Below, one piece after another: positions 115-58,167 of a DNA stretch of 64,000 bases. The notes beneath the pieces were generated by a model that was not told the origin of the DNA, did not search any database, and was given only the letters and a program-made list of their open reading frames with translations. The DNA lies in contig BA000048.1 in assembly GCA_000270325.1 (NCBI GenBank), positions 1,605,481 through 1,669,480 on the forward strand, in the 5' to 3' direction. Made by a program: the position numbers and the translations under genes. The DNA comes from Candidatus Caldarchaeum subterraneum (GTDB taxonomy: Archaea; Thermoproteota; Nitrososphaeria_A; Caldarchaeales; Caldarchaeaceae). Every line of letters starts with the position of its first letter. Position 1 is the first letter of the stretch.

Positions 115-927
115 TCAAGCCTGGCCTCCAGCCATCAGAGTCGTCCGTATGGTTTTTAGGATTTGTCTGATTTCTTTCGCTTTTATCCTTTGTCGACGTT
201 TGACGCTTATTGTTAGACTCTCAGCGGCTTCTTTGAGCAGTTTGTTGTATTTTCCGTCGTTTGGGCGATAGATCCCAGCGTAGCAGAGTATTTTCCTCAA
301 GCCTCTGCCGAAGTCCACATATGTGAAAAGAATGGCTAGAGCGGCTTTCCCATATAATGAATTCTTTGTGTTTATTCCCAGTATCGTGGTCAGCATGTTG
401 AACTTGGGGTATGTCATCTTAGCCAACTCAACTATCTTTCTCGCAACCCTGTCCTTCTGCCTTCTAAGCTCAAGCAACACCGGGTGGATCGTCCGCTTGT
501 TGCTGAAGTTAGCCATTACCTGCTTAGTGAAGACTAGAGACCTGCTTATCTGACGGTAGAGGCTTATCAGCCTAGTCATCTCGAGAAACTCTGGAGTAAT
601 CTCCTTGAACATCGACGCATCCATGGACATCATGGCCAAAACATCGTTCCTAGCGGACTTGCTACCGTTCCTATGGCTGGGCAGTAGGTCTAACCTTCGA
701 AGTCTATAGACTCTTACGCCTCTTCTGAGAAGCCCTATGAATTCGTCTGTAAGCTCCACAGGGATAACATCAACATAGAGCTCATCACCAGATTTGGCAG
801 GTATGTCAGCTATCCTCTCAGCTTTCCCAAACTCTACGCCATCAGTAGTATATACATGGTATTCTTCTTCGGTCTTGTTCTTACGCCTCTTGTTAGCCAG
901 TCTATGGATGTCTGCGTAGAACCTCAT
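115..927 (-). CDS. hypothetical basic protein (270 aa) in AT-rich segment; no recognisable catalytic motif
   Basis: Long ORF from six-frame track; K/R-rich; lower GC than neighbours; no motif I can assign. Confidence 0.4.
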   Translation of the reverse strand: MRFYADIHRLANKRRKNKTEEEYHVYTTDGVEFGKAERIADIPAKSGDELYVDVIPVELTDEFIGLLRRGVRVYRLRRLDLLPSHRNGSKSARNDVLAMMSMDASMFKEITPEFLEMTRLISLYRQISRSLVFTKQVMANFSNKRTIHPVLLELRRQKDRVARKIVELAKMTYPKFNMLTTILGINTKNSLYGKAALAILFTYVDFGRGLRKILCYAGIYRPNDGKYNKLLKEAAESLTISVKRRQRIKAKEIRQILKTIRTTLMAGGQA

Positions 928-1350: not shown

Positions 1351-1565
1351 GGTGTAGATAGGCTGGGTATTAAAGGTGTTAGGCTATTATTCAGCGAAGC
1401 GCCTCAAGAGTTTAGTAAAGAACCTCCAAAAAATAGCCCAAAACCCATAATTATTGAGGGTAGGATTAAGGATATGGAGATAACACTATACCAAGCACCA
1501 AGAATAGAATAACATGAGTCCTTTCCCCTTTATATACAGGAAAGGACTGTAATGCAGTCGCCAAG

Positions 1566-2972
1566 ATGGTTGAACTCAGTCTTTACAGCTACGGGCCACG
1601 TACCTCTGTCGAATTCGGCGGCGGTAGGTTCGATGTCGGCCCCGATGTGTTCATAGCTGTCGAAGGTGTGGGAACTTTTGAGGGAGTTTCTGTCGAGCGG
1701 AAAATTCAAAGCCTTCTCTCAGCCGGCAAAGACCCGGCTAAAACAGCTGCCAAAGTCCATAGAGAATCTACGCAGAGAGGCCACGCATCCATCACCACCA
1801 GTTTGTCGTTTCAGCTTGAGGTAAGGGAATGCAGCCGCGCCCTCTCCATGCTGCTAGTTGCACCACCCTTCGGCTCATATCTCCAAGAATCCCAGAGAAG
1901 AGCAATCGTAACCCATTCATCCCTCATAACACCTCCCCTCCCGTCTGAACACCATGTAAAAATCTTCGAAGAAACTGCACACCGCCTCGTCGACGGCTAC
2001 AAACAACTAATCGAAAACGGCGTCACTCTCGAGGACGCACGCTACGTTCTTCCACTGTGCACAAAAACATCCCTCTTCATCAGCTGCAGCCTCGAAACCT
2101 ACGCACCCTTTATTCAGCACAGTAACGTCGGGGAACATTTGCCCTCCGAGGTTCACGAGTTTGCTGAAAAATTCTATTCTCTGGCGAAAAATGTCGCGCC
2201 CATGATGGTTGAGGCCCGTCTCATGATCAAGCATCCTTTAGTATCTTATCCCTTCCCCAACCCCTTCAAGCCATCTGACCCGTTTTTCAGCAAACAACTT
2301 GAGGGAAAAGACCTTGACGAGCCCCTACTCCTCCATTTACAGAATCTTCTACCGGGCAAGCTGATTCATGATGTCTTCGCCGCGCATGTTAAAGAGTTGG
2401 TGGACACCGTGAACCCGTTAATCAACGCCGTCACACTCGAGCCACTCTCCCTCGTCGCATACCATCAAGCCATCAGACACCGCACAGTCCCAACAGCCGT
2501 CGAATCAATTTACACAGCTGCCGAAAGAGCCTTGAAGAACCCTGAGAAAAACATCATTCCGCCACCAGATGTTAAAACAAATCCACGAAACATGAAGCTT
2601 TTCACGCAGCTTTGCATAGAGTCTCTGGAGTGTTATGATAAGCTTGTGAAAGACGGCTGCAGGCTGGGTGATGCAGCCCTTATTCTACCACAGGCCTTGA
2701 AGCTTTATGTTGTGAGGGCGTATAACGGGTTCAACCTATTGTATCCCTCCGGGTTCGTGGCCACGAGAACCTGTAGCTACGCACAGTGGGAGGAACGGGC
2801 CATAGCCTACAAGCTTCTACACGAGGTTGTGAAGAGGGCCCCCGAGCTTGAGACGGTTATGGGCGAGAAGTGTCGGCAGCTGGGCTACTGTCCTGAGAAA
2901 ACGTGGTGTCCCATAATCCTAAAGTATCACAAATACTCCGATGAATTGCATCAGAGGATGCAAAAGTCTTGA
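1566..2972 (+). CDS. thyX: ThyX-like (flavin-dependent thymidylate synthase family) protein with two tandem ThyX domains
   Basis: Domain 2 carries canonical RHR-X7-S motif (AIRHRTVPTAVES); domain 1 has ThyX-like FQLEVRECSRAL...SYLQESQRR with RHR replaced by APP; both halves have the E/GDAR(Y)VLP...F..N..Y..F block; stop overlaps queD start (ATGA). Confidence 0.6.
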   Translation: MVELSLYSYGPRTSVEFGGGRFDVGPDVFIAVEGVGTFEGVSVERKIQSLLSAGKDPAKTAAKVHRESTQRGHASITTSLSFQLEVRECSRALSMLLVAPPFGSYLQESQRRAIVTHSSLITPPLPSEHHVKIFEETAHRLVDGYKQLIENGVTLEDARYVLPLCTKTSLFISCSLETYAPFIQHSNVGEHLPSEVHEFAEKFYSLAKNVAPMMVEARLMIKHPLVSYPFPNPFKPSDPFFSKQLEGKDLDEPLLLHLQNLLPGKLIHDVFAAHVKELVDTVNPLINAVTLEPLSLVAYHQAIRHRTVPTAVESIYTAAERALKNPEKNIIPPPDVKTNPRNMKLFTQLCIESLECYDKLVKDGCRLGDAALILPQALKLYVVRAYNGFNLLYPSGFVATRTCSYAQWEERAIAYKLLHEVVKRAPELETVMGEKCRQLGYCPEKTWCPIILKYHKYSDELHQRMQKS

Positions 2973-3439
2973 GCAAGGAGCGTTTAAAGAAAATTGAGGT
3001 AAGCGGCCCAGGCATCAACTTTGACTACGCCCACTTTCTACCCAGCTCACCTAAGTGCGGCGTTCTACATGGCCACTCTTCAACAGTTTCCGTTACGGTT
3101 GTGGGCAAGGTGGTCGACGAAATGGTTGTCGAGTTCGGCGAACTGAAGAAAATTGTTAAGAAAGTGGTGGATGCTATGGACCACAAACTCATCGTATGCA
3201 GAAAATATCTAAGCCATCTGGAGGATGGTAAGGTCAAGGTCGAGTTCGACGGCGTAGGAGGCCACTATGAATTCATACTTCCCATCAACTCGGTCTACGT
3301 GATAGAACGCGATTCAACAGTTGAGAACATTTCAGAACACATAGCTGCGAGGCTTAGAGAGATGCTTCCTCCAAATGTTCAGAGAATACACGTAAGGATG
3401 AGTGAAGGATTCGGAAAATACGCCACCTCTTCACTATGA
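2969..3439 (+). CDS. queD: 6-carboxy-5,6,7,8-tetrahydropterin synthase / 6-pyruvoyl-tetrahydropterin synthase family (QueD)
   Basis: CxxxHGH zinc motif (CGVLHGHS), ~156 aa, translationally coupled to queC. Confidence 0.8.
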   Translation: MSKERLKKIEVSGPGINFDYAHFLPSSPKCGVLHGHSSTVSVTVVGKVVDEMVVEFGELKKIVKKVVDAMDHKLIVCRKYLSHLEDGKVKVEFDGVGGHYEFILPINSVYVIERDSTVENISEHIAARLREMLPPNVQRIHVRMSEGFGKYATSSL

Positions 3440-4086
3440 AGATTGTGGCGCTTGTTTCAGGCGGCATCGACTCCACAGTTATGCTGTGGAAACTGCGCAG
3501 CGAGGGCCATTCAATTCTGCCCTTGACTCTGCTGACTTTCAGAAGAAACCCGAGGGAGATCGAGGCTGCCAAGAAAATCTCCAAAGCAGCAAGCGGACGC
3601 GAGCCAATTGTGTATGATGTCAGCTTTCTCCGCGAACTATATGATTATCCGCAGCACATAAAGGAGAGAGTTTTCCAACAGTTTCCCAGTTTACCCAACA
3701 TCGTCATCCCCTACCGAAACATTATCTTCTATTCGGTGGCTGCGTACGTGGCCTGCCACGAGGCGGCTGAGGCGATAGCAGGTGGACACACCCGCGAGGA
3801 CATGGAGCGTATACCCGATGTCGGAGAAGAGTTTTTCGCTGATCTGGAGAAAATCCTAAACAAGTCCACACCGTTCCACAGGGTCAAAATCTTGACACCT
3901 GTTGCGGGTCTCTGGAAGCCGGAGATAATGAGGCTTGGTGTCGAGCTCGGCGCACCAATCGGGGAAACTTGGAGCTGCTGGTCGGTTTTTGAGAAACACT
4001 GCGGCAAATGCCCCGGCTGCTTATCGAGAAAAGAGGTTTTCAGAGCCGTGGGGCTCACAGACCCTACCGAGTATCTGGAGGGATAG
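3436..4086 (+). CDS. queC: 7-cyano-7-deazaguanine synthase (QueC)
   Basis: N-terminal PP-loop SGGIDS; C-terminal Zn motif CW..HCGKCPGC. Confidence 0.85.
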   Translation: MKIVALVSGGIDSTVMLWKLRSEGHSILPLTLLTFRRNPREIEAAKKISKAASGREPIVYDVSFLRELYDYPQHIKERVFQQFPSLPNIVIPYRNIIFYSVAAYVACHEAAEAIAGGHTREDMERIPDVGEEFFADLEKILNKSTPFHRVKILTPVAGLWKPEIMRLGVELGAPIGETWSCWSVFEKHCGKCPGCLSRKEVFRAVGLTDPTEYLEG

Positions 4087-4121
4087 CGTTTTTAGCTACA
4101 TTTCTTAGCCATGGCAGGGGG

Positions 4122-4925
4122 ATGGCGTCACTTACGGTTGTCTATGCAGGTAAGCGCCCCGATGCCGTTGCAGCCGCAGAAAAGCTCAGGGAAATTCTTC
4201 CGAAGCATTTTGAAAAGTGGCGTGTTTTATCGCTCTCAGAGTTCGAGCAAATCAGTCAGAGTCCTGTTGACGATGTTTTGATGATTCTCGGAGGAGACGG
4301 CACCGTTCTGAGGGCGACGAGACACATAAAGTCTCCGAATGTAAGGGTCGTCGGCGTGAATTTTGGGAGAGCTGGGTTCCTTTGCGTGATCGAGCCCGAG
4401 GAGTTGGAGACGGCTGTGAAGAAATTAGCAGCGGAAGATTATCATGTGGAGGAGATTATGAGGTTGTCTCTCTATGTCGACGACAAATACGTGGGGGATG
4501 CGTTGAATGAGATTTACGTCTCTTCGACGAGGCCCGGGACAGTGATTGAGTATCGTGTTCAGCAGCGTGAGGTGCTTGCCTCCGATGTGGCAGACGGAGT
4601 AATATTATCTACACCTGTGGGCTCGACAGCCTATGCGTTTTCCAGCGGAGGACCGATAGTAGATGAGAGGCTGGAGACGGTTGTGGTCGTGCCGATGGCT
4701 TCAATGACAAACCTTAGACCAATGGTAATCTCGATAGCCACTCCTCTACAGGTCTCTGTTGTGAAGGGGCGTGCACAGGCCCTCGTCGACGGACACACGG
4801 TTACACCTGTTGAGAAGGGAGAGGTCCGGGTTGAGAAATCACTTCACAGCATACACATGATATCTTTCGACGAGAGACCGTTGTTTAGTCGTAGGCTGAG
4901 GAAAAGATTGTATGGCAGGCCGTAG
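4122..4925 (+). CDS. nadK: NAD kinase
   Basis: GGDGT motif, NE...S, DG(V)ILSTPVGSTAYAFSSGGP motif; start chosen at in-frame ATG 4122 (ORF extends to 4008 upstream). Confidence 0.85.
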   Translation: MASLTVVYAGKRPDAVAAAEKLREILPKHFEKWRVLSLSEFEQISQSPVDDVLMILGGDGTVLRATRHIKSPNVRVVGVNFGRAGFLCVIEPEELETAVKKLAAEDYHVEEIMRLSLYVDDKYVGDALNEIYVSSTRPGTVIEYRVQQREVLASDVADGVILSTPVGSTAYAFSSGGPIVDERLETVVVVPMASMTNLRPMVISIATPLQVSVVKGRAQALVDGHTVTPVEKGEVRVEKSLHSIHMISFDERPLFSRRLRKRLYGRP

Positions 4926-19651: not shown

Positions 19652-20350
19652 ATGAATAGAATCGGCTTAATTGTCCCCTCGTCCAACACGACCATGGAGA
19701 GGGAGTTTTGGGAATCTCTAAACGGCCATGCGACGATACATGCTGGCCGTGTTTTTCTGGAGAATGTTATGGTTTCTGAGTTAACCGTATTGGAGGATGA
19801 AGCGGTTAGGGAGGCGCGGAAACTGGTTACGGCGGGGGTTGATGTTCTCGTTTATGGCTGCACAAGCGGAAGCTTTGTCAAAGGCCCTCAGCAATATAGC
19901 GGTATCGAGGAGAAGCTCGAGAAACTGGGTAAACCAGCTGTAGCGACTTCAGGGGCTGTCATTAGAGCACTTACTCACTTGGGGGCGGGGAAAATCTCCC
20001 TAATCACACCATATACAAGAGACATCACAGAGGTTGAGAAAGCTTTCTTGGCGAAACATGGTTTCGAGGTCCTCTCCACCTTCCACGCATCCATAGTGGC
20101 CAACCTCGATATTGGCATGGTAAAGGATGATGAGGTAGCTGAATGGGCTACGGAGAACACTCACCCCGACTCGGACGCCATCTTCATAAGCTGCACAAAC
20201 CTCAGCACCTTCAAAGCCATCAAAAGAATCGAGGAAAACACAGGAAAGCCCGTGGTTTCAAGCAACTCGGCAACCCTCTGGAACGTGCTCCAAAAGCTAA
20301 ACAAGAAGATCGACCTGCCTCTGCTGGGCATGCTGTTCTCAGCGAGGTAA
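19652..20350 (+). CDS. Asp/Glu/hydantoin racemase family protein (hydantoin/allantoin racemase- or maleate isomerase-like)
   Basis: Family pattern incl. YGCTSGSF; TATA TTTTTTATAA 19622-19631 upstream. Confidence 0.7.
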   Translation: MNRIGLIVPSSNTTMEREFWESLNGHATIHAGRVFLENVMVSELTVLEDEAVREARKLVTAGVDVLVYGCTSGSFVKGPQQYSGIEEKLEKLGKPAVATSGAVIRALTHLGAGKISLITPYTRDITEVEKAFLAKHGFEVLSTFHASIVANLDIGMVKDDEVAEWATENTHPDSDAIFISCTNLSTFKAIKRIEENTGKPVVSSNSATLWNVLQKLNKKIDLPLLGMLFSAR

Positions 20351-20356
20351 TCATTC

Positions 20357-22408
20357 TTGGCAAAGGTTGTAGCCGCTGTGGATGTAGGCGGCACCTTCAC
20401 GGACCTGGTCGCGGTTGATGAAAGCGATGGCAGGTTATACAAGGTTAAGACTCGCAGCACGCCGCATAGACCCGAGGAGGGCTTTCTAGACGCAGTACAA
20501 AAGTTGCTGGAGAATTTCTCCCCAAAAGATTTTGAGCTTATCATACACGTTAACACTATCGGGACTAATCTTTTCAGAGGCCAGCTGGCCCTCAAGATGC
20601 CTGCTGTATCGCTTGTGACTACGAAGGGGTTTAGAGATGTGGTTGAGATAGGGAGGCAGAACAGGCCAGAGCTCTACAACATCTTCTACAGAAGACCCGA
20701 CCCAATAGTGCCTCGTGAGAGACGGTTCGAGGTTTCTGAAAGGGTTGACGGGAAAGGCGAGGTGTTGAAGGAGGTTGATGAGAGAGAGCTTGAGGCCCTA
20801 GCTGAGCAAATAGAGAAAATAGGCACAGAATCGGTAGCCATATGTTTCCTCAACAGCTACCTGAATCCCGTTAATGAAAAAAGAGCTAAAGAAGTTTTGA
20901 GGAGGTGTCTAAACGCATTAATTTTCACATCATATGAAGTGGACCCCGAGCATCGCGAATATGAGCGGACTAGCACGACCGTGGTCAACGCGGCTTTGGC
21001 GCCCGTCGTGTCGAGATACATCGCTTCTGTGAGACAGGGGCTTGATGGGCTGGGTATCACCTGCCCTGTCCAGATAATGAGCTCTGCCGGAGGGCTTGTC
21101 GACGTGGATGAAGCTGTCAACCGGCCAGTCGCATGTATAGAGTCTGGGCCAGCGGCGGGGGTGATTGGGGCTGCTAAAGTCGCAGAAGCAATCGGGCTGA
21201 AGCGTGTCATTAGCTTTGACATGGGTGGGACGACGGCTAAAACGGGAGTTGTTGTGGATGGCTTGCCCGCCACTGTTCCAGAGATAGAGGTAGGGGGCCG
21301 TGTCCACATGGGGAGAATAATAAAAGGAAGCGGGTACCCTGTTAGGTTCCCGTCAATAGACCTAGCGGAGGTGAGCGCCGGAGGAGGCACAATAATACAA
21401 GTGTCCAAAACAGGCGGGCTTCAAGTGGGTCCGCTGAGCGCGGGAGCCGACCCGGGTCCAGCTTGCTATGGAATGGGCGGGGTAGAGCCAACTATCACTG
21501 ACGCTAACCATCTCCTCGGCAGAGTTGAGCACCTACTTGGAGGAGAGATGAAGCTTGACACAGTTCTCGCAGAGAAGGCGATGGAGAAGGTGGCTAAGCA
21601 GCTTGGCCAGAACTTGGTGGAGACATCGTGGAACTCACTCGTCCTCGCAAACCTCCATATGGCAAGAGCCGTGCACATAGTAACGCTTGAACGTGGCCTT
21701 GACCCGACAGAGTTCACGCTCGTCGCCTTCGGTGGAGCAGGGCCAATGCACGCGGCCGAGCTCGCACAACAAATAGGAATATCCAAAATTGTTATCCCAC
21801 CTAGCCCAGGCCTCTTCTCCTCGCTCGGCCTGTTGATGACAGACATGAAATACAGTTACGTCAGAGGATACGTCAAAACTCTCAGTAAAGACGACGAGCA
21901 AAAAATCGAGCAAACCTACAGAGAGATAGAAGAATATGCCGTTGGGCAGTTAAGCAGAAAAGTTGCGTTGAAAGAATACCGCATCGTAAGGACAATAGAC
22001 CTCCGATACCTCGGACAAGGATACGAGATAGAGGTAGATGCTCCGCGTCCCTTCAACATCGATGAGGTGTTCACGAAGTTTGAAGAGCTTCACTCCTCAA
22101 CCTACGGATACAAACATGTCGGCGAAAAAATCGAATCAACAGCTTTACGAGTCTACATCATCATCCATACCAGCAGACCATCACTCCCAAAAACATATGA
22201 CCAGAGAAGATACGCCGCGAAACGTGTCCGCCGTGTCTTCTTCGGGGAAGGTTTTATGGACTCGCCGGTGCTTTGGAGAGAGGCTCTAGAAACGGGATAT
22301 GAGGCCGAAGGCCCGTTGGTCATCGAGGAATACGACTCAACCACTGTCGTTCCACCTGGCTGGAGTATACATGTGGAGGAGAACGGCTGCATGGTGATGG
22401 AACGTTGA
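20357..22408 (+). CDS. hyuA: ATP-dependent hydantoinase/oxoprolinase subunit A (HyuA family)
   Basis: N-terminal AVDVGGTFTD; 683 aa. Confidence 0.9.
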   Translation: MAKVVAAVDVGGTFTDLVAVDESDGRLYKVKTRSTPHRPEEGFLDAVQKLLENFSPKDFELIIHVNTIGTNLFRGQLALKMPAVSLVTTKGFRDVVEIGRQNRPELYNIFYRRPDPIVPRERRFEVSERVDGKGEVLKEVDERELEALAEQIEKIGTESVAICFLNSYLNPVNEKRAKEVLRRCLNALIFTSYEVDPEHREYERTSTTVVNAALAPVVSRYIASVRQGLDGLGITCPVQIMSSAGGLVDVDEAVNRPVACIESGPAAGVIGAAKVAEAIGLKRVISFDMGGTTAKTGVVVDGLPATVPEIEVGGRVHMGRIIKGSGYPVRFPSIDLAEVSAGGGTIIQVSKTGGLQVGPLSAGADPGPACYGMGGVEPTITDANHLLGRVEHLLGGEMKLDTVLAEKAMEKVAKQLGQNLVETSWNSLVLANLHMARAVHIVTLERGLDPTEFTLVAFGGAGPMHAAELAQQIGISKIVIPPSPGLFSSLGLLMTDMKYSYVRGYVKTLSKDDEQKIEQTYREIEEYAVGQLSRKVALKEYRIVRTIDLRYLGQGYEIEVDAPRPFNIDEVFTKFEELHSSTYGYKHVGEKIESTALRVYIIIHTSRPSLPKTYDQRRYAAKRVRRVFFGEGFMDSPVLWREALETGYEAEGPLVIEEYDSTTVVPPGWSIHVEENGCMVMER

Positions 22409-23973
22409 GCCTACCCCACGAGGTTGTCAAGTACAGCCTTCTATACATATCTGAGGAGATGGGCGTGGCTCTCCGCAAGTCAGCTTTCTCACCCAACATC
22501 CGAGAAAGAGCGGACCACAGCTGCGCCATCCTCGACTGGAGAGGGAGACTGATAGGACAAGCGGAGCACATACCTGTCCACATAGGCTCCCTTCCCCACG
22601 GCCTCAAAAACACCCTCGCATACTTGGAGAAGAAAGGGGTGGAAATGTCTCCGGGGGACATGTATGTTCTCAACGACCCCTACATAGCAGGCACACATCT
22701 CAACGATATCACAACAATAAGACCCATATTTTACCGAGGAGAGCTCGTCGCATACGTCGCAAATAAAGCCCATCACGTCGATGTCGGAGGCATAGACCCC
22801 TCTAGCATCTCGATACGTGCGGAAACGCTTCTCCAAGAGGGAATAGTTATTCCACCGGTAAAGCTGATGAAAGAAAACAAGATTATGGAAGATGTCGTGG
22901 ATATTCTGAGAAACAATACAAGGATACCTGATATAACTCTCGGAGACCTACGGGCGCAGATAGCAGCCAACCTGATAGGCGAGAAAAAACTTCTAGACTT
23001 GATAGAGAAAGTTTCGCTACCGGTTTTCAGAGAAGCGGTGGAACAGATCATAGAGAAAACAAACCAGCTGGTCAGGCAGGAGGTTGCCCAGCTTCCATGG
23101 GGCAGGGCCGTCGGCGAGGATTTTCTGGAGCTCGATGAAAGGGACCTTGTAATCAAGGCGGATGTCGAAGTAGGCTCCCAGGGTTTTCGCGTGAACTTCG
23201 CCGGCACAGACAGACAGGTTAACAAACCGCTTAACGCTGTCCTAGGTGTCACCATAGCGGCGACAACCTACACCATCAGAACACTCCTCGGCCCCGACAT
23301 ACTGTTGAACGAGGGATTTACTGAGACGTTGTCTATACATGCTCCAGAAGGGACGCTGGTCAACCCCGTCAAACCGGCGCCTGTTGCGGCTGGAAACCTC
23401 GAAACAAGCCAGAGAATAGTCGACACGATCTACAAAGCCTTGTCAGAGATTATGCATGACAGAATTCCGGCAGCCAGCACCGGCAGCATGAATAACCTGA
23501 TGATGGGTGGAATACATCCCGAGACAGGGAAAGCATGGGCCTTTTACGAAACCATAGGCGGGGGAGGAGGTGCAAGACCAGGCATGGACGGCGTCGACGG
23601 CATACACTGCCACATGACTAACACCCTCAACACACCTATCGAGGTAATCGAACACTACTACCCTGTGCTGTTCATGTCTTATAGGTTCAGGGATGGAAGC
23701 GGAGGTGTGGGAAGGTGGAGAGGAGGAATGGGAATTGAGCGGAGCCTCAAGGCGTTAGCACCCATCCACGTCGCGGTTATGGGTGATAGAAGCCGACACA
23801 GGCCCTGGGGCCTGAAAGGTGGAGGAGAAGGCGCGCCAAGCGAATATCTTATCAAGAAAGTTGACGGAACAATCATCAAACTCAGCTCCAAAGACGTAGC
23901 CACACTAAACCCCGGGGACATCATCATAATAAGAACAGCAGGAGGCGGTGGATACGGTCGAATGGATAGTTAG
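22405..23973 (+). CDS. hyuB: hydantoinase/oxoprolinase subunit B (HyuB family)
   Basis: HyuB family length and motifs; overlaps hyuA stop. Confidence 0.9.
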   Translation: MSLPHEVVKYSLLYISEEMGVALRKSAFSPNIRERADHSCAILDWRGRLIGQAEHIPVHIGSLPHGLKNTLAYLEKKGVEMSPGDMYVLNDPYIAGTHLNDITTIRPIFYRGELVAYVANKAHHVDVGGIDPSSISIRAETLLQEGIVIPPVKLMKENKIMEDVVDILRNNTRIPDITLGDLRAQIAANLIGEKKLLDLIEKVSLPVFREAVEQIIEKTNQLVRQEVAQLPWGRAVGEDFLELDERDLVIKADVEVGSQGFRVNFAGTDRQVNKPLNAVLGVTIAATTYTIRTLLGPDILLNEGFTETLSIHAPEGTLVNPVKPAPVAAGNLETSQRIVDTIYKALSEIMHDRIPAASTGSMNNLMMGGIHPETGKAWAFYETIGGGGGARPGMDGVDGIHCHMTNTLNTPIEVIEHYYPVLFMSYRFRDGSGGVGRWRGGMGIERSLKALAPIHVAVMGDRSRHRPWGLKGGGEGAPSEYLIKKVDGTIIKLSSKDVATLNPGDIIIIRTAGGGGYGRMDS

Positions 23974-23993
23974 GTGCCTAGGCTTCTACGTGC

Positions 23994-24602
23994 GTGGAAT
24001 TTAATAACGGGCATTTTCGTGAGATATGCGGATTGGCTGAGGAGTTTAAGCTGTTTGGGCAGTGGAGTGTTGAGGGCGTGGAGGTTTTAGACGAGGGGCT
24101 AAAGAAATACATATCGCTGAAGCCGCAGGTTGTTCCTCATTCGGGTGGACGCCATGAACATCGTAGATTCGCCAAGTCGCAGCTGAACATAGCTGAGCGC
24201 CTCGCCAACATGTTGATGAGACCTGGGAAAAACGGTGGAAAAAAGAGCAAGGCCCTCGCAGCGGTGAGGAACGCTCTCTGGATAATCCATCTACGGACCG
24301 GTAAGAACCCGTTGGAGGTTTTGGTCAGGGCTGTTGAGAACTCAGCTCCCCTCGAGGACGTCACACGCCTCAGTTACGGTGGAATAGTTTACTTCAAAGC
24401 CGTTGACATCAGCCCACAGAGAAGGGTGGACCTCGCCCTCAGAAACATCGCTCAAGCAGCTCGCGAAAACTCTTTCAGAACAAGGAGAACAATCGACGAG
24501 GCTTTAGCTGAGGAGATCATCCTCGCCTCCGAAAAAGACAGCAAGAGCTTCGCAGTGAAACGTAGAATTGAGCTGGAGCGGGTGGCGCTGGCCTCTCGTT
24601 AG
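23994..24602 (+). CDS. rps7: 30S ribosomal protein S7 (uS7, eS5-like)
   Basis: KLFGKW-like N-terminus, ...GGIVYFKAVDISPQRRVDLALRN..., C-terminal ELERVA. Confidence 0.85.
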   Translation: MEFNNGHFREICGLAEEFKLFGQWSVEGVEVLDEGLKKYISLKPQVVPHSGGRHEHRRFAKSQLNIAERLANMLMRPGKNGGKKSKALAAVRNALWIIHLRTGKNPLEVLVRAVENSAPLEDVTRLSYGGIVYFKAVDISPQRRVDLALRNIAQAARENSFRTRRTIDEALAEEIILASEKDSKSFAVKRRIELERVALASR

Positions 24603-26167
24603 CCTAGGCATCTTCTAATCCCGGCTGCTCTAAGCAGCTCCAGACGCGCCTCCTCCAAATTTTCCTCCATATATGCTATGAGGAAATTGTTGAGTATGTT
24701 GCTGTATTTTCTCTCCGAAGATGTTTTGGGCCCCGGCTTTATGTTTAGGAGATCTTGTGCGGCTTCGAGGTCCTCGACGTAGAGTGGCAAAGCTTCTCTA
24801 AGGGGCTGCAGTTCATGCTTATCTTTGGATTCCTCGCTCAGCAGCGTGTTGATGTTGTCGAAGCAAACCAGCGGAGCGACTCTGCGCAAATCTTCGGCAA
24901 GATTGTAGAACTCCTTCAACACATCAAATTCCTCTTCAGATAGTTGGTAGAGGAAGCGGAGGCCTATAAACTCGGGAGGCAGGCCGAGTGTGTAAAAGGA
25001 GCATGCATATGGGATGGCTCTCGGCAGCTCAACCCCTCCAAGCACACGCGAGTAGGCGAAAGCACCGACATGTAGCTTGCGTCTCCGCCTCGCAGGCGTC
25101 AGCGCCGAGACACGGGCTATGGATGGTGCAGCCACCTCGGCGAAAGCCCTATAAGCCTGGGAACCTTTGGCGATAACCTTTAAAACCGTTTCAACACTCT
25201 CAATTATCGTTGACCGTTTTTCGATGGGTAATGTATTGTTGATGCTCTTTATAGCTTCCTTCACAATGTTTTGTGGATAATCGTAGCGGAAGGCGGACTG
25301 TATGGTTACCGTGGATACGCCGCCGTATTCTTCGTAGAATTTTTCTAGATGTGTTGGGCTGAGTCCGCCTCTGAAAGGAAGTGTTCCAACGCCTATGATT
25401 GTGTGAACAGGTATGCCTGTGTTTGTGGATAGGTTTTGCAGCTTGTCTATGGCTAGTTTGGCCATCAACGTGGCTGCGACGAGGCCGTTGTTGAGCGCCG
25501 GGTCTGAGCGGGCGATGAAGGCTCGCACATAACGCGGCGAGGTCAGCTCTATGAACCTTCCCAGTATAGTGTCGGCGTTGAGCATCGAGTCTAGGTCTTC
25601 GAAAAGTGGGATGACCTCGATTTTTTCTGGGCTGATTTTTCCGATGATGTCTCCTAGCGTGATGTTTGGATAGTCGATGACTATTTCCTCCAGCTGGACA
25701 ACCGCTTTTCTATAGGTGTTGACCACACGTATGAGTTGGTTTACTGATGTGGTGAAGGGGAGGATGACTTCGAAGACGGGCGGGTTCACCTGGCGGCCGT
25801 AGAATGCCTCGCATGCGTCGAAATGCTTGGGTATGCTTTGCAGTGTTTCGAAGAAAACTTTCCTGTCGCTTTTCTCCATCGATGGGTTGGGTATGCGGTA
25901 TGTGAGGAAATGGTCTCTCCCGATTATTTTTTCGCGGAAATATTCGGGATGTGTTGTGAGCAGTTTGCGGACGACGTTGAGGTCGACGTCTTTCCCTTCG
26001 GCGTCCCACATCGCTTCCTCGCATCCCAATGTGACCCAGCTCTGGTAAACCTCTTCAACCTCGTCATCACCCTCTATCAGCGGCGTATCTAGCCACGGCG
26101 GGCTGGAGACGTTGTCGGGATGCTGCGAACTCATCGTCCTCGGAATGTGTCTCTCTTCGTTAACCAT
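24599..26167 (-). CDS. ppcA: archaeal-type phosphoenolpyruvate carboxylase
   Basis: ~520 aa; N-terminal IPRTMSSQHPDN typical of archaeal PEPC. Confidence 0.85.
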   Translation of the reverse strand: MVNEERHIPRTMSSQHPDNVSSPPWLDTPLIEGDDEVEEVYQSWVTLGCEEAMWDAEGKDVDLNVVRKLLTTHPEYFREKIIGRDHFLTYRIPNPSMEKSDRKVFFETLQSIPKHFDACEAFYGRQVNPPVFEVILPFTTSVNQLIRVVNTYRKAVVQLEEIVIDYPNITLGDIIGKISPEKIEVIPLFEDLDSMLNADTILGRFIELTSPRYVRAFIARSDPALNNGLVAATLMAKLAIDKLQNLSTNTGIPVHTIIGVGTLPFRGGLSPTHLEKFYEEYGGVSTVTIQSAFRYDYPQNIVKEAIKSINNTLPIEKRSTIIESVETVLKVIAKGSQAYRAFAEVAAPSIARVSALTPARRRRKLHVGAFAYSRVLGGVELPRAIPYACSFYTLGLPPEFIGLRFLYQLSEEEFDVLKEFYNLAEDLRRVAPLVCFDNINTLLSEESKDKHELQPLREALPLYVEDLEAAQDLLNIKPGPKTSSERKYSNILNNFLIAYMEENLEEARLELLRAAGIRRCLG

Positions 26168-26169
26168 GG

Positions 26170-27144
26170 CTATTCACGGGAGTAGGGAACACCCAGCGCC
26201 GCGGGAACACCTATTCTCTTGCGCACAGACTCCGCGGACAACAGCGTCAATGTCACTATGGTTACTATGTAGGGGAGCATCAGGAGAAAATATGGAAGCT
26301 GAGCCGCCACGCCCACTAGCTGGAGCCTGAACTGGAGAGCCTCGACTCCGCCGAAGAGATAGGCGCCTAGGATTGCTCTCAGCGGGTTCCATGTCGCGAG
26401 GATGACGAGGGCGAGGGCGATGAAGCCGCGGCCCTGCGTCATCCCCTCTACCCAGAAGGGCTGGTAACCTATGAACAGATAGGCTCCGGCCAGTGAACCC
26501 AGCGCACCGCATATCGTCATCGCTATGTAACGGATGAGGAAGACGTTTACGCCGAGGGCGTCGGCCATCGACGGGTTTTCCCCCACGGAGCGTAGGCTAA
26601 GCCCGAAGCTTGTTTTGAACAAGATGAACCAGAGGACGCCGGCGAGGATAAGGGAGATGTACACAAGTATGTTGTGGCTGAATATCATGGGGCCGATGAT
26701 GGGGATGTTGACTAGGCCTGGGATAGGGATGGGCGGCAGCTTGGCCGCTTCCTGTGATGCGATGACGGCTGGGGAAGCCTCGGGGTTCAAAGCCAGAATT
26801 ATTCTCCCCCTTATCTCGTTTGAGGCAAGCAGGCCGCTCAGGCCAAGGCCAAGGACAGTGAAGGCCAACCCGACGACCACTTGGTTTAGTCTTAGGCTGA
26901 CCGTGAAAAGAGCGTGCATGAGACCCAGAGCAGCTCCCACCAACAACACCGTGGCGATGGCCCAGCCATGGCCCAGAGCGTTCGTGAAAATATAGGAAAG
27001 CGATGCACCCATTATCATCATCCCCTCCATGCCGAGGTTGAGCACCCCAGCGCGTTCAGCAACCGTTTCCCCGAGGGAAGCCAGTAGGAAAACTGTTCCA
27101 GACGCAACAGCTCCAACCAGCACAGATTCAACTAACTCAATCAT
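26170..27144 (-). CDS. nucleoside/simple-sugar ABC transporter permease
   Basis: Polytopic membrane protein in BMP-family transporter operon. Confidence 0.8.
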   Translation of the reverse strand: MIELVESVLVGAVASGTVFLLASLGETVAERAGVLNLGMEGMMIMGASLSYIFTNALGHGWAIATVLLVGAALGLMHALFTVSLRLNQVVVGLAFTVLGLGLSGLLASNEIRGRIILALNPEASPAVIASQEAAKLPPIPIPGLVNIPIIGPMIFSHNILVYISLILAGVLWFILFKTSFGLSLRSVGENPSMADALGVNVFLIRYIAMTICGALGSLAGAYLFIGYQPFWVEGMTQGRGFIALALVILATWNPLRAILGAYLFGGVEALQFRLQLVGVAAQLPYFLLMLPYIVTIVTLTLLSAESVRKRIGVPAALGVPYSRE

Positions 27145-28205
27145 TTCACAACCCTTAGCCTATATCGTTTGAAAAACTCGCCGAGGATAATCATCAGGAA
27201 GATTGTTGCTTGAAGTATCTGGATTGCTGGGAAGGGGAGGTTGAGTGTTGCCTGTATGACGTCACCGGCAACAAGTAATCCACCAAAGAAAATAGCGGCT
27301 GGAACAGCTAACCAAGGGTTGAGGGCCGCGAGAAAGGCTATGATTATGGCGGTGTATCCGTATCCGACGTAGGCGCTTGGAGGCCTCATCCTGCCGAGAA
27401 TGCCAGCGACTATTGAGAGACCACCTAACCCAGCCAACCCGCCAGCTATCAAGCTGCCGAGTAAAAGTGTCCGCCCAATCCTCACACCCGCGTACCTCGC
27501 CGCTTCATAGTTTTGTCCGAGAACCCTCATCTCGAAGCCCGCGGGCGTGTACAACATGAATCCATACAACAGCCCAGCGATTATGAAGGCGGCTGGGACG
27601 CCGACGTAAGCGGTGTGCCCTAGGATGGTGTCGAGCCTTGCGTATGGTGGGAAAACGATTGAGAGTGGGAAACCGAAACCTTTTGGGTCTCTCCACGGCC
27701 CGTGGATAAGATAGTTGACAAAATGGTATGCGACGTAGTTGAGCATAAGTGTTGGCAGAATTTCGTTTACGCCGAGCTTGGCTTTGAGAAACGCGGGTAA
27801 GGCACAGTATAAGCCACCTGCCAAAAATGACGACACAACCATGAGAGGAAGAACGAGAAAATCGGGAACAAGGCCATAGTAGACATGAAGCAATACAACA
27901 CCGGTTGCAGCGACCATGCCGAGGTATATCTGACCTTCGGCGCCTATGTTCCAGAAATTCATTTTGAAGGCCACGGTTAGACCGAGGGCCGCGAAGCCGA
28001 GTGGCAGCCCGCGGAGAGCAGCCTCTAGAAGCGTTCTCTCGCTGAAATAAACCTCGAAGAGACGCGTGATTACGTCAAAGGCGTTGACACCTAGGATTTC
28101 AAAAATGAGGCCAGCCACAAGAAAGCTGGCCGCGACGAAGATTACCGTGACCGCTGCGGAAAATTTACGCGAGAACTGGCCACGTTTCTCGAGTTTAAGC
28201 ATCAT
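27141..28205 (-). CDS. nucleoside/simple-sugar ABC transporter permease
   Basis: Polytopic membrane protein; overlaps neighbour. Confidence 0.8.
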   Translation of the reverse strand: MMLKLEKRGQFSRKFSAAVTVIFVAASFLVAGLIFEILGVNAFDVITRLFEVYFSERTLLEAALRGLPLGFAALGLTVAFKMNFWNIGAEGQIYLGMVAATGVVLLHVYYGLVPDFLVLPLMVVSSFLAGGLYCALPAFLKAKLGVNEILPTLMLNYVAYHFVNYLIHGPWRDPKGFGFPLSIVFPPYARLDTILGHTAYVGVPAAFIIAGLLYGFMLYTPAGFEMRVLGQNYEAARYAGVRIGRTLLLGSLIAGGLAGLGGLSIVAGILGRMRPPSAYVGYGYTAIIIAFLAALNPWLAVPAAIFFGGLLVAGDVIQATLNLPFPAIQILQATIFLMIILGEFFKRYRLRVVK

Positions 28206-29747
28206 CTAGGCGCTGACCTCCGCCCTCTTCACACCCGTCATCATCAGCCCGATTTCCTCCACGTCGTATTCTCCTTTTCTGAGAACACCCACTATCTCGC
28301 CCCGGTACATCACCATTATCCGGTCGCTGAGGCTAATCAATTCCTCGAGCTCCTCCGAGACAAGAAGCACAGCCACACCCTTTTCAGCTCTTCTAACCAG
28401 CTCTTGGTGAATCTGCTCTGTTGAGGCGATGTCAAGCCCGCGGGTGGGGTAGGCCGCCAATATCACTTTAGTGTTGGGTAGGATTCCCAGCTCACGGGCC
28501 AGGACAAGACGCTGAATGTTTCCGCCCGAAAGGTTTGCCACCTTGTTGGAGATCGTCGGTGTAACTATTCGGAAGGCTTTCACAAGCTCCTCAGCCTTCA
28601 GGTTAACATCCCGCCATCTTATCAGAAACCTATTGCCGAAAAGATGGTTTCTATATGCTTTGAGGACAAGGTTCTCTGCGACTGTCATTTCCGGTGCAGA
28701 GTAGCGTAGGGCCTCTGCAGGTATGTAGCTGACGCCGGCGTCGATTATCTCCTGTGGATGCCTGTTTGTGATGTCTACTCCGTCAAGCCATACTTTTCCG
28801 CGCACAATTTTCCTAAGGCCCGCGAGTGCTTCTAGAAGCTCTGTCTGACCGTTTCCCGAAACACCCGCTATGCCGAGAATCTCACCACGGTATAGCTTGA
28901 AGGAGACGTTTCGCACAGCCTCTAAGCCTTTGTCACCTAGGACCACGAGTCCCGATGCTTCGAGAACCGGTTTCGAAGTGTCAAGACTTCTTGTTGATGT
29001 TATTTTTAGCAGTGGTCTTCCAATCATGAGTTCAACCAGCTCCTCTATGTTTGTCTCGTTGACGTTTTTCGTGGCCACGTTTCTGCCAGCCCTCATAACA
29101 GTCACTCTATCGGCTACGTTGAAAACTTCCTCGAGCTTATGAGTAATTAAAACCACCCCCAGCCCCTGGGTAGCCATTTTGCGGAGAGTCTGGAAAAGCG
29201 CAACACTTTCCTGTGGAGTAAGCACGGACGTCGGCTCATCAAGTATGAGTATCCTCACTTTTCTGTAGAGTGCTTTGAGCAGCTCGACCTGCTGCTTCTC
29301 GCCGGCGGAGAGCTGCCATACACGTGCGTTGGGGGAGATTGTCCAGCCATATGTTTGTATCAGCTGGGTTAGCTCGTTGTTTATTTTGCGCTCGTTTATC
29401 ACGAAGCCGAGCTCCCTTAGCCCAAGGATGACGTTTTCAGCGACGGTGTGTACGGGTATGAGTTTGAACTGCTGATGAACCATCCCTATTCCAAGTGTGA
29501 GAGCGTCACGGGGGCCTCTGATGTCCACCTTCTTGCCGTACACCCATATCTCACCTGCGTCGGGCCTGTAGATGCCGTAGAGAATGTTCATCAAGGTGGA
29601 TTTTCCTGCACCGTTCTCGCCCAGCAGTGCGTGAACCTCGCCGGGCCTAAGCGTAAAATTCACATTATCATTAGCAACAACGTTGGGAAACTTCTTAACT
29701 ATGCCCCTCATCTCAACAAGGTGCTCGGGCCCGGACATGCGGACCAC
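28206..29747 (-). CDS. ABC transporter ATP-binding protein with duplicated ABC domains
   Basis: Two Walker A (GENGAGKST; GVSGNGQT) and two signature motifs. Confidence 0.85.
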   Translation of the reverse strand: MVRMSGPEHLVEMRGIVKKFPNVVANDNVNFTLRPGEVHALLGENGAGKSTLMNILYGIYRPDAGEIWVYGKKVDIRGPRDALTLGIGMVHQQFKLIPVHTVAENVILGLRELGFVINERKINNELTQLIQTYGWTISPNARVWQLSAGEKQQVELLKALYRKVRILILDEPTSVLTPQESVALFQTLRKMATQGLGVVLITHKLEEVFNVADRVTVMRAGRNVATKNVNETNIEELVELMIGRPLLKITSTRSLDTSKPVLEASGLVVLGDKGLEAVRNVSFKLYRGEILGIAGVSGNGQTELLEALAGLRKIVRGKVWLDGVDITNRHPQEIIDAGVSYIPAEALRYSAPEMTVAENLVLKAYRNHLFGNRFLIRWRDVNLKAEELVKAFRIVTPTISNKVANLSGGNIQRLVLARELGILPNTKVILAAYPTRGLDIASTEQIHQELVRRAEKGVAVLLVSEELEELISLSDRIMVMYRGEIVGVLRKGEYDVEEIGLMMTGVKRAEVSA

Positions 29748-29782
29748 GACAAAAATACAAAAAAATTGTTGAGAGTTTTTGT

Positions 29783-31132
29783 TTACCGCGGCAGCTCGCT
29801 TTGTATGTATTCAACGAACCAATCCATGTTCCATAGCATGTCTCTGTCGGCGCGTTCACTGCCCTTTATCCTGACTTCGCCTTTCTGGTCGCGTATCGGC
29901 TCACCAAGGTTGCCGTCTACGCTGAAGGGCTCGAACAAAAGCTCCTTCATCTCCTCATACCTCTTCTTGATCTCCAGCTGCCATTCCGAAGGTATGGCTG
30001 GGTTAAGCTTGCCGAGCTGAAGGGTTCCATCAACCTGCCCGGCTGTGCTCTGCTCTGGCGACCTTCTCCACCTATAGGGCATGTAGTCTCCTATTCTTGT
30101 CCAGATGTCGACGGTTCTCCACGTTCCTGTTGCAACCATTCTGTAAAAGTCCAAGTATATTGGGCCCCAGTTAACGATCTGGCCTGTTAGGTGGGCGTTT
30201 GGCCCGTAGCTGGACATGTCGTTGTAGTGGCTGAAGCTCCAGACCCTGCGGCCCTTCTGGGTGGTGTATTCTTCGGCTACCTGTAAGGTTGTTGGCGTGT
30301 CCTCTGTGAACGCAAGAACATCAGCGTTGGATTGTTCTATCAACGCCACTGCAGCCTCTCTTGCCTTACCAGGGTCAAACCATGCAAACAGCCAGCTTAC
30401 ATAGGCTTTGATGTTTCTCCCGGTTCTCTTCTTGTAGGCGTAGTTCGCTCCGAGGACGAAGGCGTTGATGTGTCTGACAACCTCGGGTATCGGGAAAGCA
30501 GCAACATATCCCACGACACCTGTCTGTGTAACGGCGCCGGCCGCGAGTCCGTTGAGGTAGTAGAGCTGGTAGAACTCTGCAAATGCGCTGCTCATGTTCT
30601 GTGGCGCATTTCCCGCGGCCCCGCTTCGGTATCCTGAGATGTGGACAAAGTATTTGTCGGGATACTTTGCGGCGACCTCGGCCGTCGAGTCCATGTAGCC
30701 AAAGCTGGTAGTTATTACAAGGTCTGCGCCTTGGTTGATGAGCGACTCGATTGCCCCGGCAGACTGCGCCTCTGGAACACTCTCTATGTAGAAGCTGTCA
30801 ACGTTCTTATAAGCGGCGTCCGCGAATTTTCTTCCTTCGTTGTGGGCGAAGGTCCATCCATAGTCTCCCACGGGGCCTACGTATATGTAGCCGACCTTCA
30901 GCCTCTTAGCAGGGGCCTGAACAGTCGTAGTCACCGTCGCACCTGGCCCCGTAACAGTTCTGGTAACTTCAGACGTAACTGTACGCGTCACCGCTGGCGC
31001 AGCCTGAGATGCTCCAAGAAAATATCCGGCAAGACCACCGACAACCGCTCCCGCCGCGACACCGCCGACCGCCGCACCAGTTGAGACAGCTAAAAACTTT
31101 CTTCTCGATATTCTGGATTTTTTCTCCATCAT
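29783..31132 (-). CDS. BMP-family (PnrA/Med-like) purine-nucleoside-binding lipoprotein with TM anchor and Thr/Val-rich linker
   Basis: BMP fold signature; N-terminal TM helix; TRTVTSEVTRTVTGPGATVTTTV linker. Confidence 0.75.
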   Translation of the reverse strand: MMEKKSRISRRKFLAVSTGAAVGGVAAGAVVGGLAGYFLGASQAAPAVTRTVTSEVTRTVTGPGATVTTTVQAPAKRLKVGYIYVGPVGDYGWTFAHNEGRKFADAAYKNVDSFYIESVPEAQSAGAIESLINQGADLVITTSFGYMDSTAEVAAKYPDKYFVHISGYRSGAAGNAPQNMSSAFAEFYQLYYLNGLAAGAVTQTGVVGYVAAFPIPEVVRHINAFVLGANYAYKKRTGRNIKAYVSWLFAWFDPGKAREAAVALIEQSNADVLAFTEDTPTTLQVAEEYTTQKGRRVWSFSHYNDMSSYGPNAHLTGQIVNWGPIYLDFYRMVATGTWRTVDIWTRIGDYMPYRWRRSPEQSTAGQVDGTLQLGKLNPAIPSEWQLEIKKRYEEMKELLFEPFSVDGNLGEPIRDQKGEVRIKGSERADRDMLWNMDWFVEYIQSELPR

Positions 31133-31162
31133 ATATTCTATTATGGGTGGGGTATATATGCT

Positions 31163-32953: not shown

Positions 32954-33022
32954 AACACTATCAGCGACATATATTTATGAGGTGTCTACAAACAGATAAA
33001 AACCTCTACTGCGCATTATTGT

Positions 33023-34030
33023 TTGATGACTGGAATTCGTTGGGGGTTGTATCTTCAGGATATGCATGTGCGGGACATGGTGAGGCATGCGCAATTTGCT
33101 GAGCAGCATGGCTTCGACTCGGCATGGATTGCGGAGTCACGTCTAGCGAGAGATGCGCTCACCCCGATGACTGCAATCGCCACGGTTACTTCACGGATTA
33201 AGGTGGGGGCGGGTGTCATCAACACTTGGACGAGGAATGCGGCGTTGATTGCTCAGACCTTTGCGACTATGGATGAGCTGAGCGATGGACGTGTGATGCT
33301 GGGGCTTGGTGCGTGGTGGGACCCTTTGGCTTGGAAGGTGGGGATTGAGAGGAAGGAGCCGCTTACCTGCATGAGGGAGTATGTCACGGTGATTCGCCGT
33401 CTCTTCAGGATGGAAGAGGTTACTTTCGAAGGTAAATTCGTGAAGATGCGTGGGGTAAGGCTGGACGTTTTACATGGCGCGGGCGAGAAACCACGAAACA
33501 TACCCATCTACATAGGGGCGACTGGGTGGAAGATGATGGAGTTGGCTGGAGAGATAGGTGATGGGGTGCTTCTCAACTACCTCGTCTCACCGAAATACAA
33601 CGACACCGCGCTCGAGCACATACGGGCAGGAGCATCAAAAGCAGGGAGGAGGCTTGAGGACATCGACAGGCCACAGCTCATAGCATGCTCCATGCACCCC
33701 GACGCAGACAAAGCCATCAAACTTGCCAAGAAACATGTGACCATGACGCTTGGGCAGCAGCCTCACATCATGAAGGCAAGCGGCGTGAGCGAGGATTTGA
33801 TTGAAGAGGTGCAAAAAGTTATGGGAGGCTGGCCTGCGAAGCCTGGGGGGATTGAGAAGGCAGCGGAGATCGTGCCTGACGACGTTGTCAAGATGATTAC
33901 CGCATCGGGCACTCCTTCGGATGTTGTGGCAAAGGTCAAGGAGTATATGGCTCATGGCTGTACGTCGCCGCTTCTTCTCCCTCTCAGCGGAAACCCCGAG
34001 TATGTGATTAAGAGCGTGGTGGAGGTTTAA
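33023..34030 (+). CDS. LLM-family (luciferase-like) flavin/F420-dependent oxidoreductase
   Basis: TIM-barrel LLM family pattern (…GFDSAWIAE…; …LGLGAW…). Confidence 0.8.
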   Translation: MMTGIRWGLYLQDMHVRDMVRHAQFAEQHGFDSAWIAESRLARDALTPMTAIATVTSRIKVGAGVINTWTRNAALIAQTFATMDELSDGRVMLGLGAWWDPLAWKVGIERKEPLTCMREYVTVIRRLFRMEEVTFEGKFVKMRGVRLDVLHGAGEKPRNIPIYIGATGWKMMELAGEIGDGVLLNYLVSPKYNDTALEHIRAGASKAGRRLEDIDRPQLIACSMHPDADKAIKLAKKHVTMTLGQQPHIMKASGVSEDLIEEVQKVMGGWPAKPGGIEKAAEIVPDDVVKMITASGTPSDVVAKVKEYMAHGCTSPLLLPLSGNPEYVIKSVVEV

Positions 34031-34033
34031 CAT

Positions 34034-35397: not shown

Positions 35398-35398
35398 A

Positions 35399-36232: not shown

Positions 36233-36238
36233 GGATGG

Positions 36239-41701: not shown

Positions 41702-41718
41702 GTCGGCATCACTTTTTT

Positions 41719-42963: not shown

Positions 42964-42967
42964 GCGG

Positions 42968-43399: not shown

Positions 43400-43472
43400 T
43401 ACTCTGCCGCCGAGTAAAGGGTCTTTGACAATTCCATGCGTGTCGTCGTATTCGAACCCCGCTATATCCCTA

Positions 43473-56570: not shown

Positions 56571-56674
56571 CCAAACACCCCACACTAAACCAAAACAGCC
56601 GACATAAAAACAAACAACACGAGCCAAGCCCAATCCACATCCTCACACAGCCACCCAGGCAGGAGTACGGTACA

Positions 56675-58167
<1,493 letters not shown>

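Follow-up and report, generated by a model that had tools for sequence, protein, structure and literature searches.

Flavin-dependent thymidylate synthase (ThyX) is canonically a homotetramer with four active sites, and three subunits contribute to each of them. Inter-subunit complementation was reportedly described for the Helicobacter pylori enzyme by Leduc et al. in PNAS in 2004, differently crippled subunits together forming an active site. The UMP/dUMP methylase PolB of polyoxin biosynthesis (PDB 4p5a/4p5b), which methylates UMP, is likewise single-domain and homotetrameric. In a literature search on tandem, fused or duplicated ThyX and on Aigarchaeota ThyX, the only remark that we found concerns the Chloroflexi, most of which have a ThyX ‘with a domain duplication’, uncharacterized at that time, and no other thymidylate synthase (Valas & Bourne 2009, PMC3224940), from which it follows that a duplicated ThyX can be the sole thymidylate synthase. 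Here we analyzed a thyX gene of this tandem type in a 64,000-nt stretch of Candidatus Caldarchaeum subterraneum DNA (GenBank assembly GCA_000270325.1, contig BA000048.1, positions 1,605,481 to 1,669,480 of the forward strand; hereafter the window). Its product of 468 amino acids (aa) is probably the flavin-dependent thymidylate synthase of this organism in a fused, asymmetric form, in which the catalytic residues are divided between the two halves.

Profile searches placed the protein in the ThyX family: PF02511 (Thy1) matched in two stretches (135.3 bits, cut-off 24.8, E = 2.8e-39), and the thyX equivalog TIGR02170 matched with 94.2 bits (cut-off 87.9), a small margin that depends on both halves. 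The two halves are homologous to one another (hhalign probability 97%, E = 1.2e-10, ~19% identity), and the profile of each aligns over nearly its full length with TM0449 of Thermotoga maritima, whose sequence was confirmed against PDB 1kq4 (Table 1). This profile alignment agrees with the secondary structure of an AlphaFold2 single-chain model built from 54 homologs (predicted local distance difference test 92.2, predicted template modeling score (pTM) 0.90), which found structural matches among ThyX structures only. It was used instead of a plain MAFFT alignment of the halves with TM0449, in which the motif region was out of register, and it supersedes a phmmer search of PDB that had paired SFQLE with SFHFQE of PBCV-1. 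PolB matches the tandem protein no better than TM0449. An earlier note on this DNA, made from the sequence alone, had proposed a pseudo-dimeric ThyX; the ThyX fold in both halves, the retention of the fusion across phyla and the complementary conserved residues described below all support that proposal.

The fused architecture is widespread. We found 125 full-length close homologs of 463–510 aa from independent assemblies, and a profile search of 1.84 billion cluster representatives returned 161 matches at E<=1e-30, nearly all 420–590 aa long and aligned end to end. Tandem thyX was located at 75 genome loci. Within the Caldarchaeales it occurs in Caldarchaeum, Pelearchaeum, Wolframiiraptor, Terraquivivens, Geocrenenecus, Calditenuis and Benthortus, and among the DPANN archaea in Woese-, Pace-, Nano-, Aenigm-, Undin- and Micrarchaeota; a few metagenome-assembled genomes (MAGs) with bacterial labels also carry it. 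The possibility that the open reading frame (ORF) is an assembly or annotation artefact fusing two adjacent thyX genes, which the earlier note had named as fatal to its reading, or else a decaying pseudogene, has a probability close to nil: the conservation data exclude an assembly artefact, the linker between the halves is conserved (Y228 and D238 are nearly invariant in the family) and the single-chain model is confident. The fused gene most likely arose by an ancient internal duplication. The architecture as such is not new, because tandem relatives in the databases are routinely annotated as FAD-dependent thymidylate synthase and duplicated ThyX was already remarked on in 2009. The Chloroflexi proteins, which we compared by description only, share the internal domain duplication; the named members of the present family are archaeal, and the two may belong to the same clade or stem from independent duplications.

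We then compared the catalytic positions of the two halves with TM0449 in 171 tandem proteins (54 close and 117 distant relatives), using the columns of the profile alignment. The chain as a whole has an equivalent for each of H53, Q75, R78, R80, S88, R90, R147 and R174, and the set of dUMP and flavin contacts is complete but split: H73, S109, R111 and R159 lie in half 1, and Q301, R304, R306 and R401 in half 2 (counts and codons in Table 1). In half 1 the loop S109-Q-R111-R112 corresponds to S88, G89, R90 and Y91, whereas A99-P100-P101 occupies the RHR position and an R174 equivalent is lacking. Half 2 has H300-Q301 at R74 and Q75, keeps R304-H305-R306, E313-S314, Y316 and R401, and lacks equivalents of H53 (V275), R90 (I315) and R147 (A371). 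These results bear out what the earlier note had read in the two domains, namely SFQLEVRECSRAL and SYLQESQRR with APP in place of RHR in half 1 (A99-P100-P101 aligns with R78-H79-R80) and an intact R304-H305-R306-x7-S314 in half 2. RHR-x7-S accordingly occurs once per chain, as half 1 has A99-P100-P101...S109. The block DAR(Y)VLP, which had been assigned to both halves, was found in half 1 (D157-A-R159-Y-V-L-P) but not in half 2, which reads D369-A-A371-L-I-L-P and has the arginine in 0 of the 54 close and 0 of the 117 distant relatives. Judged by these alignments, the change from RHR to APP is one part of a systematic partition of residues, and the separated contact residues would meet in one pocket.

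The partition can be read against canonical structures. In PBCV-1 ThyX, one monomer supplies Q75 and the R174 equivalent, and S88/Q89 belong to another (PMC3498832). H53, which stacks on the flavin, is supplied by a third monomer, and R78 faces flavin N1/C2=O (PMC11940539). R174 activates dUMP, and the variants S88A, R90A and Y91A are strongly impaired (PMC8316439). Because the retained sets coincide with these published roles, we assign the Q75/RHR/R174 role to half 2 and the S88/R90/R147 and H53 roles to half 1. In the enzyme that we propose, the duplication joined two ThyX subunits, and afterwards each half would have shed residues kept by the other. The protein would form a homodimer whose two half-1 and two half-2 units imitate the four subunits of canonical ThyX. 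Half 2 would provide Q75, R78-H79-R80 and the dUMP-activating R174 equivalent, while half 1 would provide the S88/R90 loop and the R147 equivalent and, from the third position, the H53 equivalent that stacks on flavin and folate. Under D2 symmetry all three roles would be met in exactly two of the four pockets, giving two composite live sites and two degenerate ones that lack every one of the arginines and the histidine. The reaction would be the usual one, dUMP + CH2-H4folate + reductant to dTMP. Like canonical homotetrameric ThyX (TM0449, PBCV-1 A674R, M. tuberculosis, H. pylori), the tandem protein has RHR-x7-S, in its half 2, and its relatives lie in a gene context of deoxynucleotide metabolism; unlike it, two subunits are fused in one chain and, with the full catalytic set in neither half, no more than two of the four sites can be complete. 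The tandem enzyme thus probably has two sites per four domains rather than four. It would resemble the complementation reported for H. pylori in that one site is built from different subunits, and would be a natural, fixed and ancient version of it, hard-wired by gene fusion.

Several points weigh against this reading. The placement of RHR with Q75, and of R147 with R90, is presumed in part from the TM0449 and M. tuberculosis structures. In contrast to canonical ThyX, R74 is replaced by His in half 2 and E86 is kept in neither half. The search for thyA (Thymidylat_synt) and a second Thy1, made with profiles of each half and a Pfam survey of ~60 further ORFs, covers the 64-kb window and found neither, and the literature search found no biochemical data for any tandem ThyX. 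A further difficulty concerns Y91, described as strictly conserved and catalytically important in canonical ThyX. On the half that bears S88 and R90 this position is an arginine, R112, which is found in 54/54 close and 62/117 distant relatives, and a tyrosine aligns with Y91 only in half 2 (Y316), which lacks R90, so that Tyr91 does not stand beside R90. At the same time the half-2 loop, expected to belong to the ‘dead’ site, still conserves E313-S314-x-Y316 (E313 in 54/54, S314 in 50/54 and Y316 in 41/54 close relatives) although R90 and R147 are gone. The tyrosines of the two halves are moreover anti-correlated: half 2 has Tyr in 96 of 116 proteins with Arg in half 1 and in 12 of 28 with Tyr in half 1 (Fisher p = 4e-5, uncorrected for phylogeny).

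A simple picture of two live and two dead sites leaves this tyrosine pattern unexplained. The half-2 loop may add to the live site, or else some role is left to the ‘dead’ pocket. The protein might be a true thymidylate synthase whose second pair of sites is not dead. There are two versions of this: the Ser314/Tyr316 loop of half 2 reaches the live site and supplies the Tyr absent from half 1, or the degenerate pocket serves a non-catalytic purpose and binds, for example, a second flavin, NAD(P)H, folate or an allosteric nucleotide. The retention of E313, S314 and Y316 and the anti-correlation speak for either version. However, one clade holds most of the half-1 Tyr cases, so the association may be purely phylogenetic, and the degenerate pocket would lack R78, R80, R174, R90, R147 and H53 together, which leaves little for canonical nucleotide or flavin binding. 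On balance we regard a functional second pair of sites as unlikely.

In addition to the partitioned residues, the tandem proteins carry four conserved cysteines, a feature found in none of the solved ThyX structures compared. Every one of the 54 close relatives has C403, C436, C442 and C448, which also occur in 112, 92, 112 and 109, respectively, of the 117 distant ones. C403 (nt 2772–2774) lies two residues past the catalytic R401, and the other three form a C-x5-C-x5-C motif with Cys-Pro pairs in the C-terminal tail. All 20 proteins without C436 have another Cys a short way past C448 (CxxC or C...CP), compared with an extra Cys in 1 of the 144 that keep C436. Because the ligand count is conserved through this compensation, a tetra-coordinate metal center is indicated, and the pattern points to a predicted four-Cys site for Zn or Fe-S beside the catalytic arginine. 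The cysteines would tie the residue two after this arginine to the C-terminal tail; with Zn, the site would be structural and would pin the R174 loop to the tail. The same four cysteines occur in three metagenomic single-domain ThyX proteins of 231–247 aa (P0235, P0260 and P0262; R-C-C..AQWEIR followed by a C-x5-C-x5/6-C tail), which are otherwise canonical (RHR..SQQSQRY, EDARFVLPN). Because single-domain forms carry it, the putative metal site is not tied to the fusion and marks a wider ThyX subgroup. A literature search for Fe-S or zinc ThyX found no paper describing a metal site in ThyX, and in the literature searched both the complementary degeneration of the halves and the four-Cys site appear to be undescribed.

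The spacing C436-x5-C442-x5-C448 equals that of the Fe-S ligand motif C-x5-C-x5-C of Rrf2 regulators (IscR, NsrR); fold and function of these proteins are unrelated, and the spacing is a lead for Fe-S binding, not evidence. In one Nanoarchaeia locus (L086) a gene for a 63-aa 4Fe-4S ferredoxin (2940–3131 of that locus) lies ~870 nt upstream of the tandem thyX and adjoins a dCMP deaminase gene. This neighbor is suggestive of a ferredoxin-linked reductant, a single and anecdotal case. In a bolder version, which we put forward tentatively and consider rather doubtful, the four cysteines would hold a [4Fe-4S] cluster close enough to the flavin for electron transfer, the archaeal tandem and some single-domain ThyX proteins would be reduced by ferredoxin and not NAD(P)H, and the tandem protein would be an obligate half-of-sites enzyme that recruits Tyr and Ser of the ‘dead’ half to the live site.

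The gene lies directly upstream of queD and queC, and the earlier note had considered a flavin/folate-dependent methylase whose different specificity would connect it with 7-deazapurine or pterin metabolism. In this explanation a ThyX-derived methylase with another substrate, as PolB has, would act alongside QueD and QueC, and its substrate would be a 7-deazapurine intermediate, a pterin intermediate or a modified nucleotide. This would fit the start and stop codons of thyX, queD and queC, which overlap in the window as in its closest relatives, as well as the Arg at the half-1 Y91 position. We searched 83 related loci with the QueD and QueC proteins of the window. Of the 75 genome loci, 16 have queD-queC after thyX, and each of these belongs to the clade at >=51% identity (Caldarchaeum, Pelearchaeum, HR01); the pair was found within 4 kb at none of the ~55 more distant loci (<=50% identity). 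The latter include Wolframiiraptor, Terraquivivens, Geocrenenecus and Calditenuis, five other Caldarchaeales genera in all, and the DPANN archaea. The overlap of thyX and queD codons is restricted to the genus Caldarchaeum; in HR01, Pelearchaeum and related MAGs a spacer of 60–260 nt with TATA-like sequences precedes queD, so that the linkage is loosened even within the one family-level clade to which it is confined.

DPANN proteins of the same architecture and residue pattern have other neighbors. In L086, the dCMP deaminase gene is directly upstream of tandem thyX and dCTP deaminase (DCD)/dUTPase and NrdG-like genes are downstream; NrdR and ribonucleotide reductase lie beside the gene in a Woesearchaeota locus (L084), and SHMT in L087. 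In HR01 (L007), GcvP/GcvT, the glycine-cleavage P and T proteins, are encoded 2–3 kb upstream. The neighbor enzymes in distant members supply dUMP and methylene-tetrahydrofolate, the substrates of ThyX, and because distant relatives adjoin deoxynucleotide or one-carbon genes these contexts support true dTMP synthesis. As the order thyX-queD-queC is seen only in Caldarchaeaceae, a specificity linked to 7-deazapurines is not supported. A methylase with another substrate is further opposed by the retention of all dUMP-contacting arginines together with S88 and Q75 in the composite site, by the score above the curated ThyX equivalog cut-off, and by the absence of queE (radical SAM) and tgt from the 64-kb window in the same Pfam survey, and we consider it very improbable. 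Overall, the evidence favors ordinary dTMP synthesis by an unusual architecture. The position beside queD-queC looks like local gene order and not a functional link; the two genes would be co-transcribed neighbors in this lineage only and make preQ0 precursors independently of ThyX.

The thyX ORF, 468 aa long as in the earlier note, starts at ATG and is preceded by a TATA-box-like sequence (Table 1), whose placement would imply a leaderless or near-leaderless transcript if it acts as a promoter. The thyX/queD junction is TTGA at 2969–2972 (tcTTGAgc) with a TTG start for queD, and not the ATGA expected from the earlier note; TTGA is also kept in the two closest relatives (L009 and L010). The overlap of the queD stop with the queC ATG (ATGA) was confirmed. 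QueD scores 76.1 bits with Pfam PTPS (cut-off 22.4) and 67.8 bits with TIGR03367, under the cut-off of 89.25; its motif C31-GVL-H35-G-H37 (catalytic/Zn type C-x3-HGH), read from the sequence, is presumably that of the QueD type (PTPS-I). QueC scores 138.5 bits with Pfam QueC and 115.6 bits with TIGR00364, under the cut-off of 150.3, and shows a PP-loop SGGIDS and a C-terminal C-x7-C-x2-C-x2-C. The mechanically called ORF of the following NAD kinase (4008–4925) overlaps queC by 79 nt, while an in-frame ATG at 4122 leaves a 36-nt spacer, like the spacing in relatives. As NAD kinase comes after queC in L009–L017 and L069, it is probably the last gene of a local thyX-queD-queC-nadK string in the genus Caldarchaeum. 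A scan for sigma-70 promoters and terminators gave counts at shuffle level, a type of scan that is uninformative for an archaeon.

Table 1. Features of the tandem thyX locus (window coordinates) and, below them, catalytic positions in TM0449 numbering with their retention among 171 tandem proteins
Feature	Position	Strand	Remarks
TATA-box-like TTTATATA	1529..1536	+	30 nt 5' of thyX ATG; read from sequence
thyX, tandem (fused double-domain) flavin-dependent thymidylate synthase (putative), 468 aa	1566..2972	+	ATG start
Half 1, residues 1-226, ThyX fold	1566..2243	+	hhalign vs TM0449, probability 98.9%
Pro-rich linker, about residues 227-253, YPFPNPFKPSDPFF...	2244..2324	+	model without regular secondary structure at residues 220-238
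Half 2, about residues 254-432, ThyX fold	2325..2861	+	hhalign vs TM0449, probability 98.3%
C-terminal Cys tail G-E-K-C436-x5-C442-P-E-x3-C448-P	2862..2927	+	Cys codons 2871-2873, 2889-2891, 2907-2909
queD, 6-carboxytetrahydropterin synthase type, 156 aa	2969..3439	+	Pfam PTPS E = 2.9e-21; TTG start
queC, 7-cyano-7-deazaguanine synthase, 216 aa	3436..4086	+	Pfam QueC E = 2.8e-40; ATG start
NAD kinase	4122..4925	+	Pfam NAD_kinase and NAD_kinase_C; start 4122 inferred
H53	1782-1784 (H73)	+	half 1 H73, kept 160/171; half 2 V275, kept 2/171
S88	1890-1901 (S109-Q-R111-R112); 2502-2507 (E313-S314)	+	half 1 S109, kept 169/171; half 2 S314, kept 130/171
R90	within 1890-1901 (R111)	+	half 1 R111, kept 170/171; half 2 I315, kept 0/171
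R147	2040-2042 (R159)	+	half 1 R159, kept 134/171; half 2 A371, kept 0/171
Q75		+	half 1 L96, kept 7/171; half 2 Q301, Q in 97/171, otherwise mostly E
R78	within 1860-1868 (A99-P100-P101); within 2475-2483 (R304-H305-R306)	+	half 1 A99, kept 5/171; half 2 R304, kept 171/171
H79	as for R78	+	half 1 P100, kept 5/171; half 2 H305, kept 131/171
R80	as for R78	+	half 1 P101, kept 31/171; half 2 R306, kept 156/171
R174	2766-2768 (R401)	+	half 1 S186, kept 2/171; half 2 R401, kept 170/171

DNA similarity and synteny with L009 (92%) and L010 (84%) begin only at ~1530 of the window, that is, at the TATA-like box. Upstream of this point we observed an ORF of 270 aa (115–927, minus strand) with no Pfam match and then 640 nt without a convincing gene and of lower GC content (0.47), and relatives at 54–60% identity have a CarS-like gene in place of the content of 1–1530. 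The position around 1530 may be a rearrangement or insertion breakpoint. Farther downstream, a cluster at 19652–39015 resembles purine/pyrimidine salvage or catabolism. It comprises an Asp/Glu-racemase-like gene (arylmalonate decarboxylase family), hydantoinase/oxoprolinase A and B, adenine deaminase, a PnrA/Bmp-type nucleoside ABC transporter, a luciferase-like monooxygenase, an amidohydrolase and a molybdenum hydroxylase of three subunits (FAD, 2Fe-2S and molybdenum cofactor). It is followed at 39729–45574 by two aspartate/ornithine carbamoyltransferase-family genes around an amino-acid (carbamate) kinase-like gene, two pyridoxal phosphate-dependent (PALP) enzymes and a V4R-domain protein. 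The window also has an archaeal 16S rRNA gene, which is complete (56674–58165, minus strand), and ~1 kb from it, on the opposite strand, a 5S rRNA gene (59095–59211, plus strand); rRNA accounts for the GC peak of 0.615 at 56–58 kb, and the ORFs 56916–57200, 57301–57636 and 57887–58219 are spurious frames in the 16S gene. Because the 64 kb contain no 23S rRNA gene, the rRNA genes are apparently unlinked. Rfam detected a tRNA at 61294–61394 (plus strand, 57.7 bits, 101 nt against a 71-position model) and ARAGORN none in the window; an archaeal tRNA with an intron is the probable explanation.

As well as being a drug target, ThyX is a textbook example of three subunits contributing to one active site. 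Complementary loss of residues in the halves of a natural fusion shows which of these residues act together, and it predicts an enzyme with two sites. For annotation, the queD-queC neighborhood gives no basis for inferring a new function of thyX. If the four-Cys site is redox-active, it would bear on how ThyX is reduced in vivo, and if the iron–sulfur reading should be true, these proteins would constitute an Fe-S-dependent class of thymidylate synthase.

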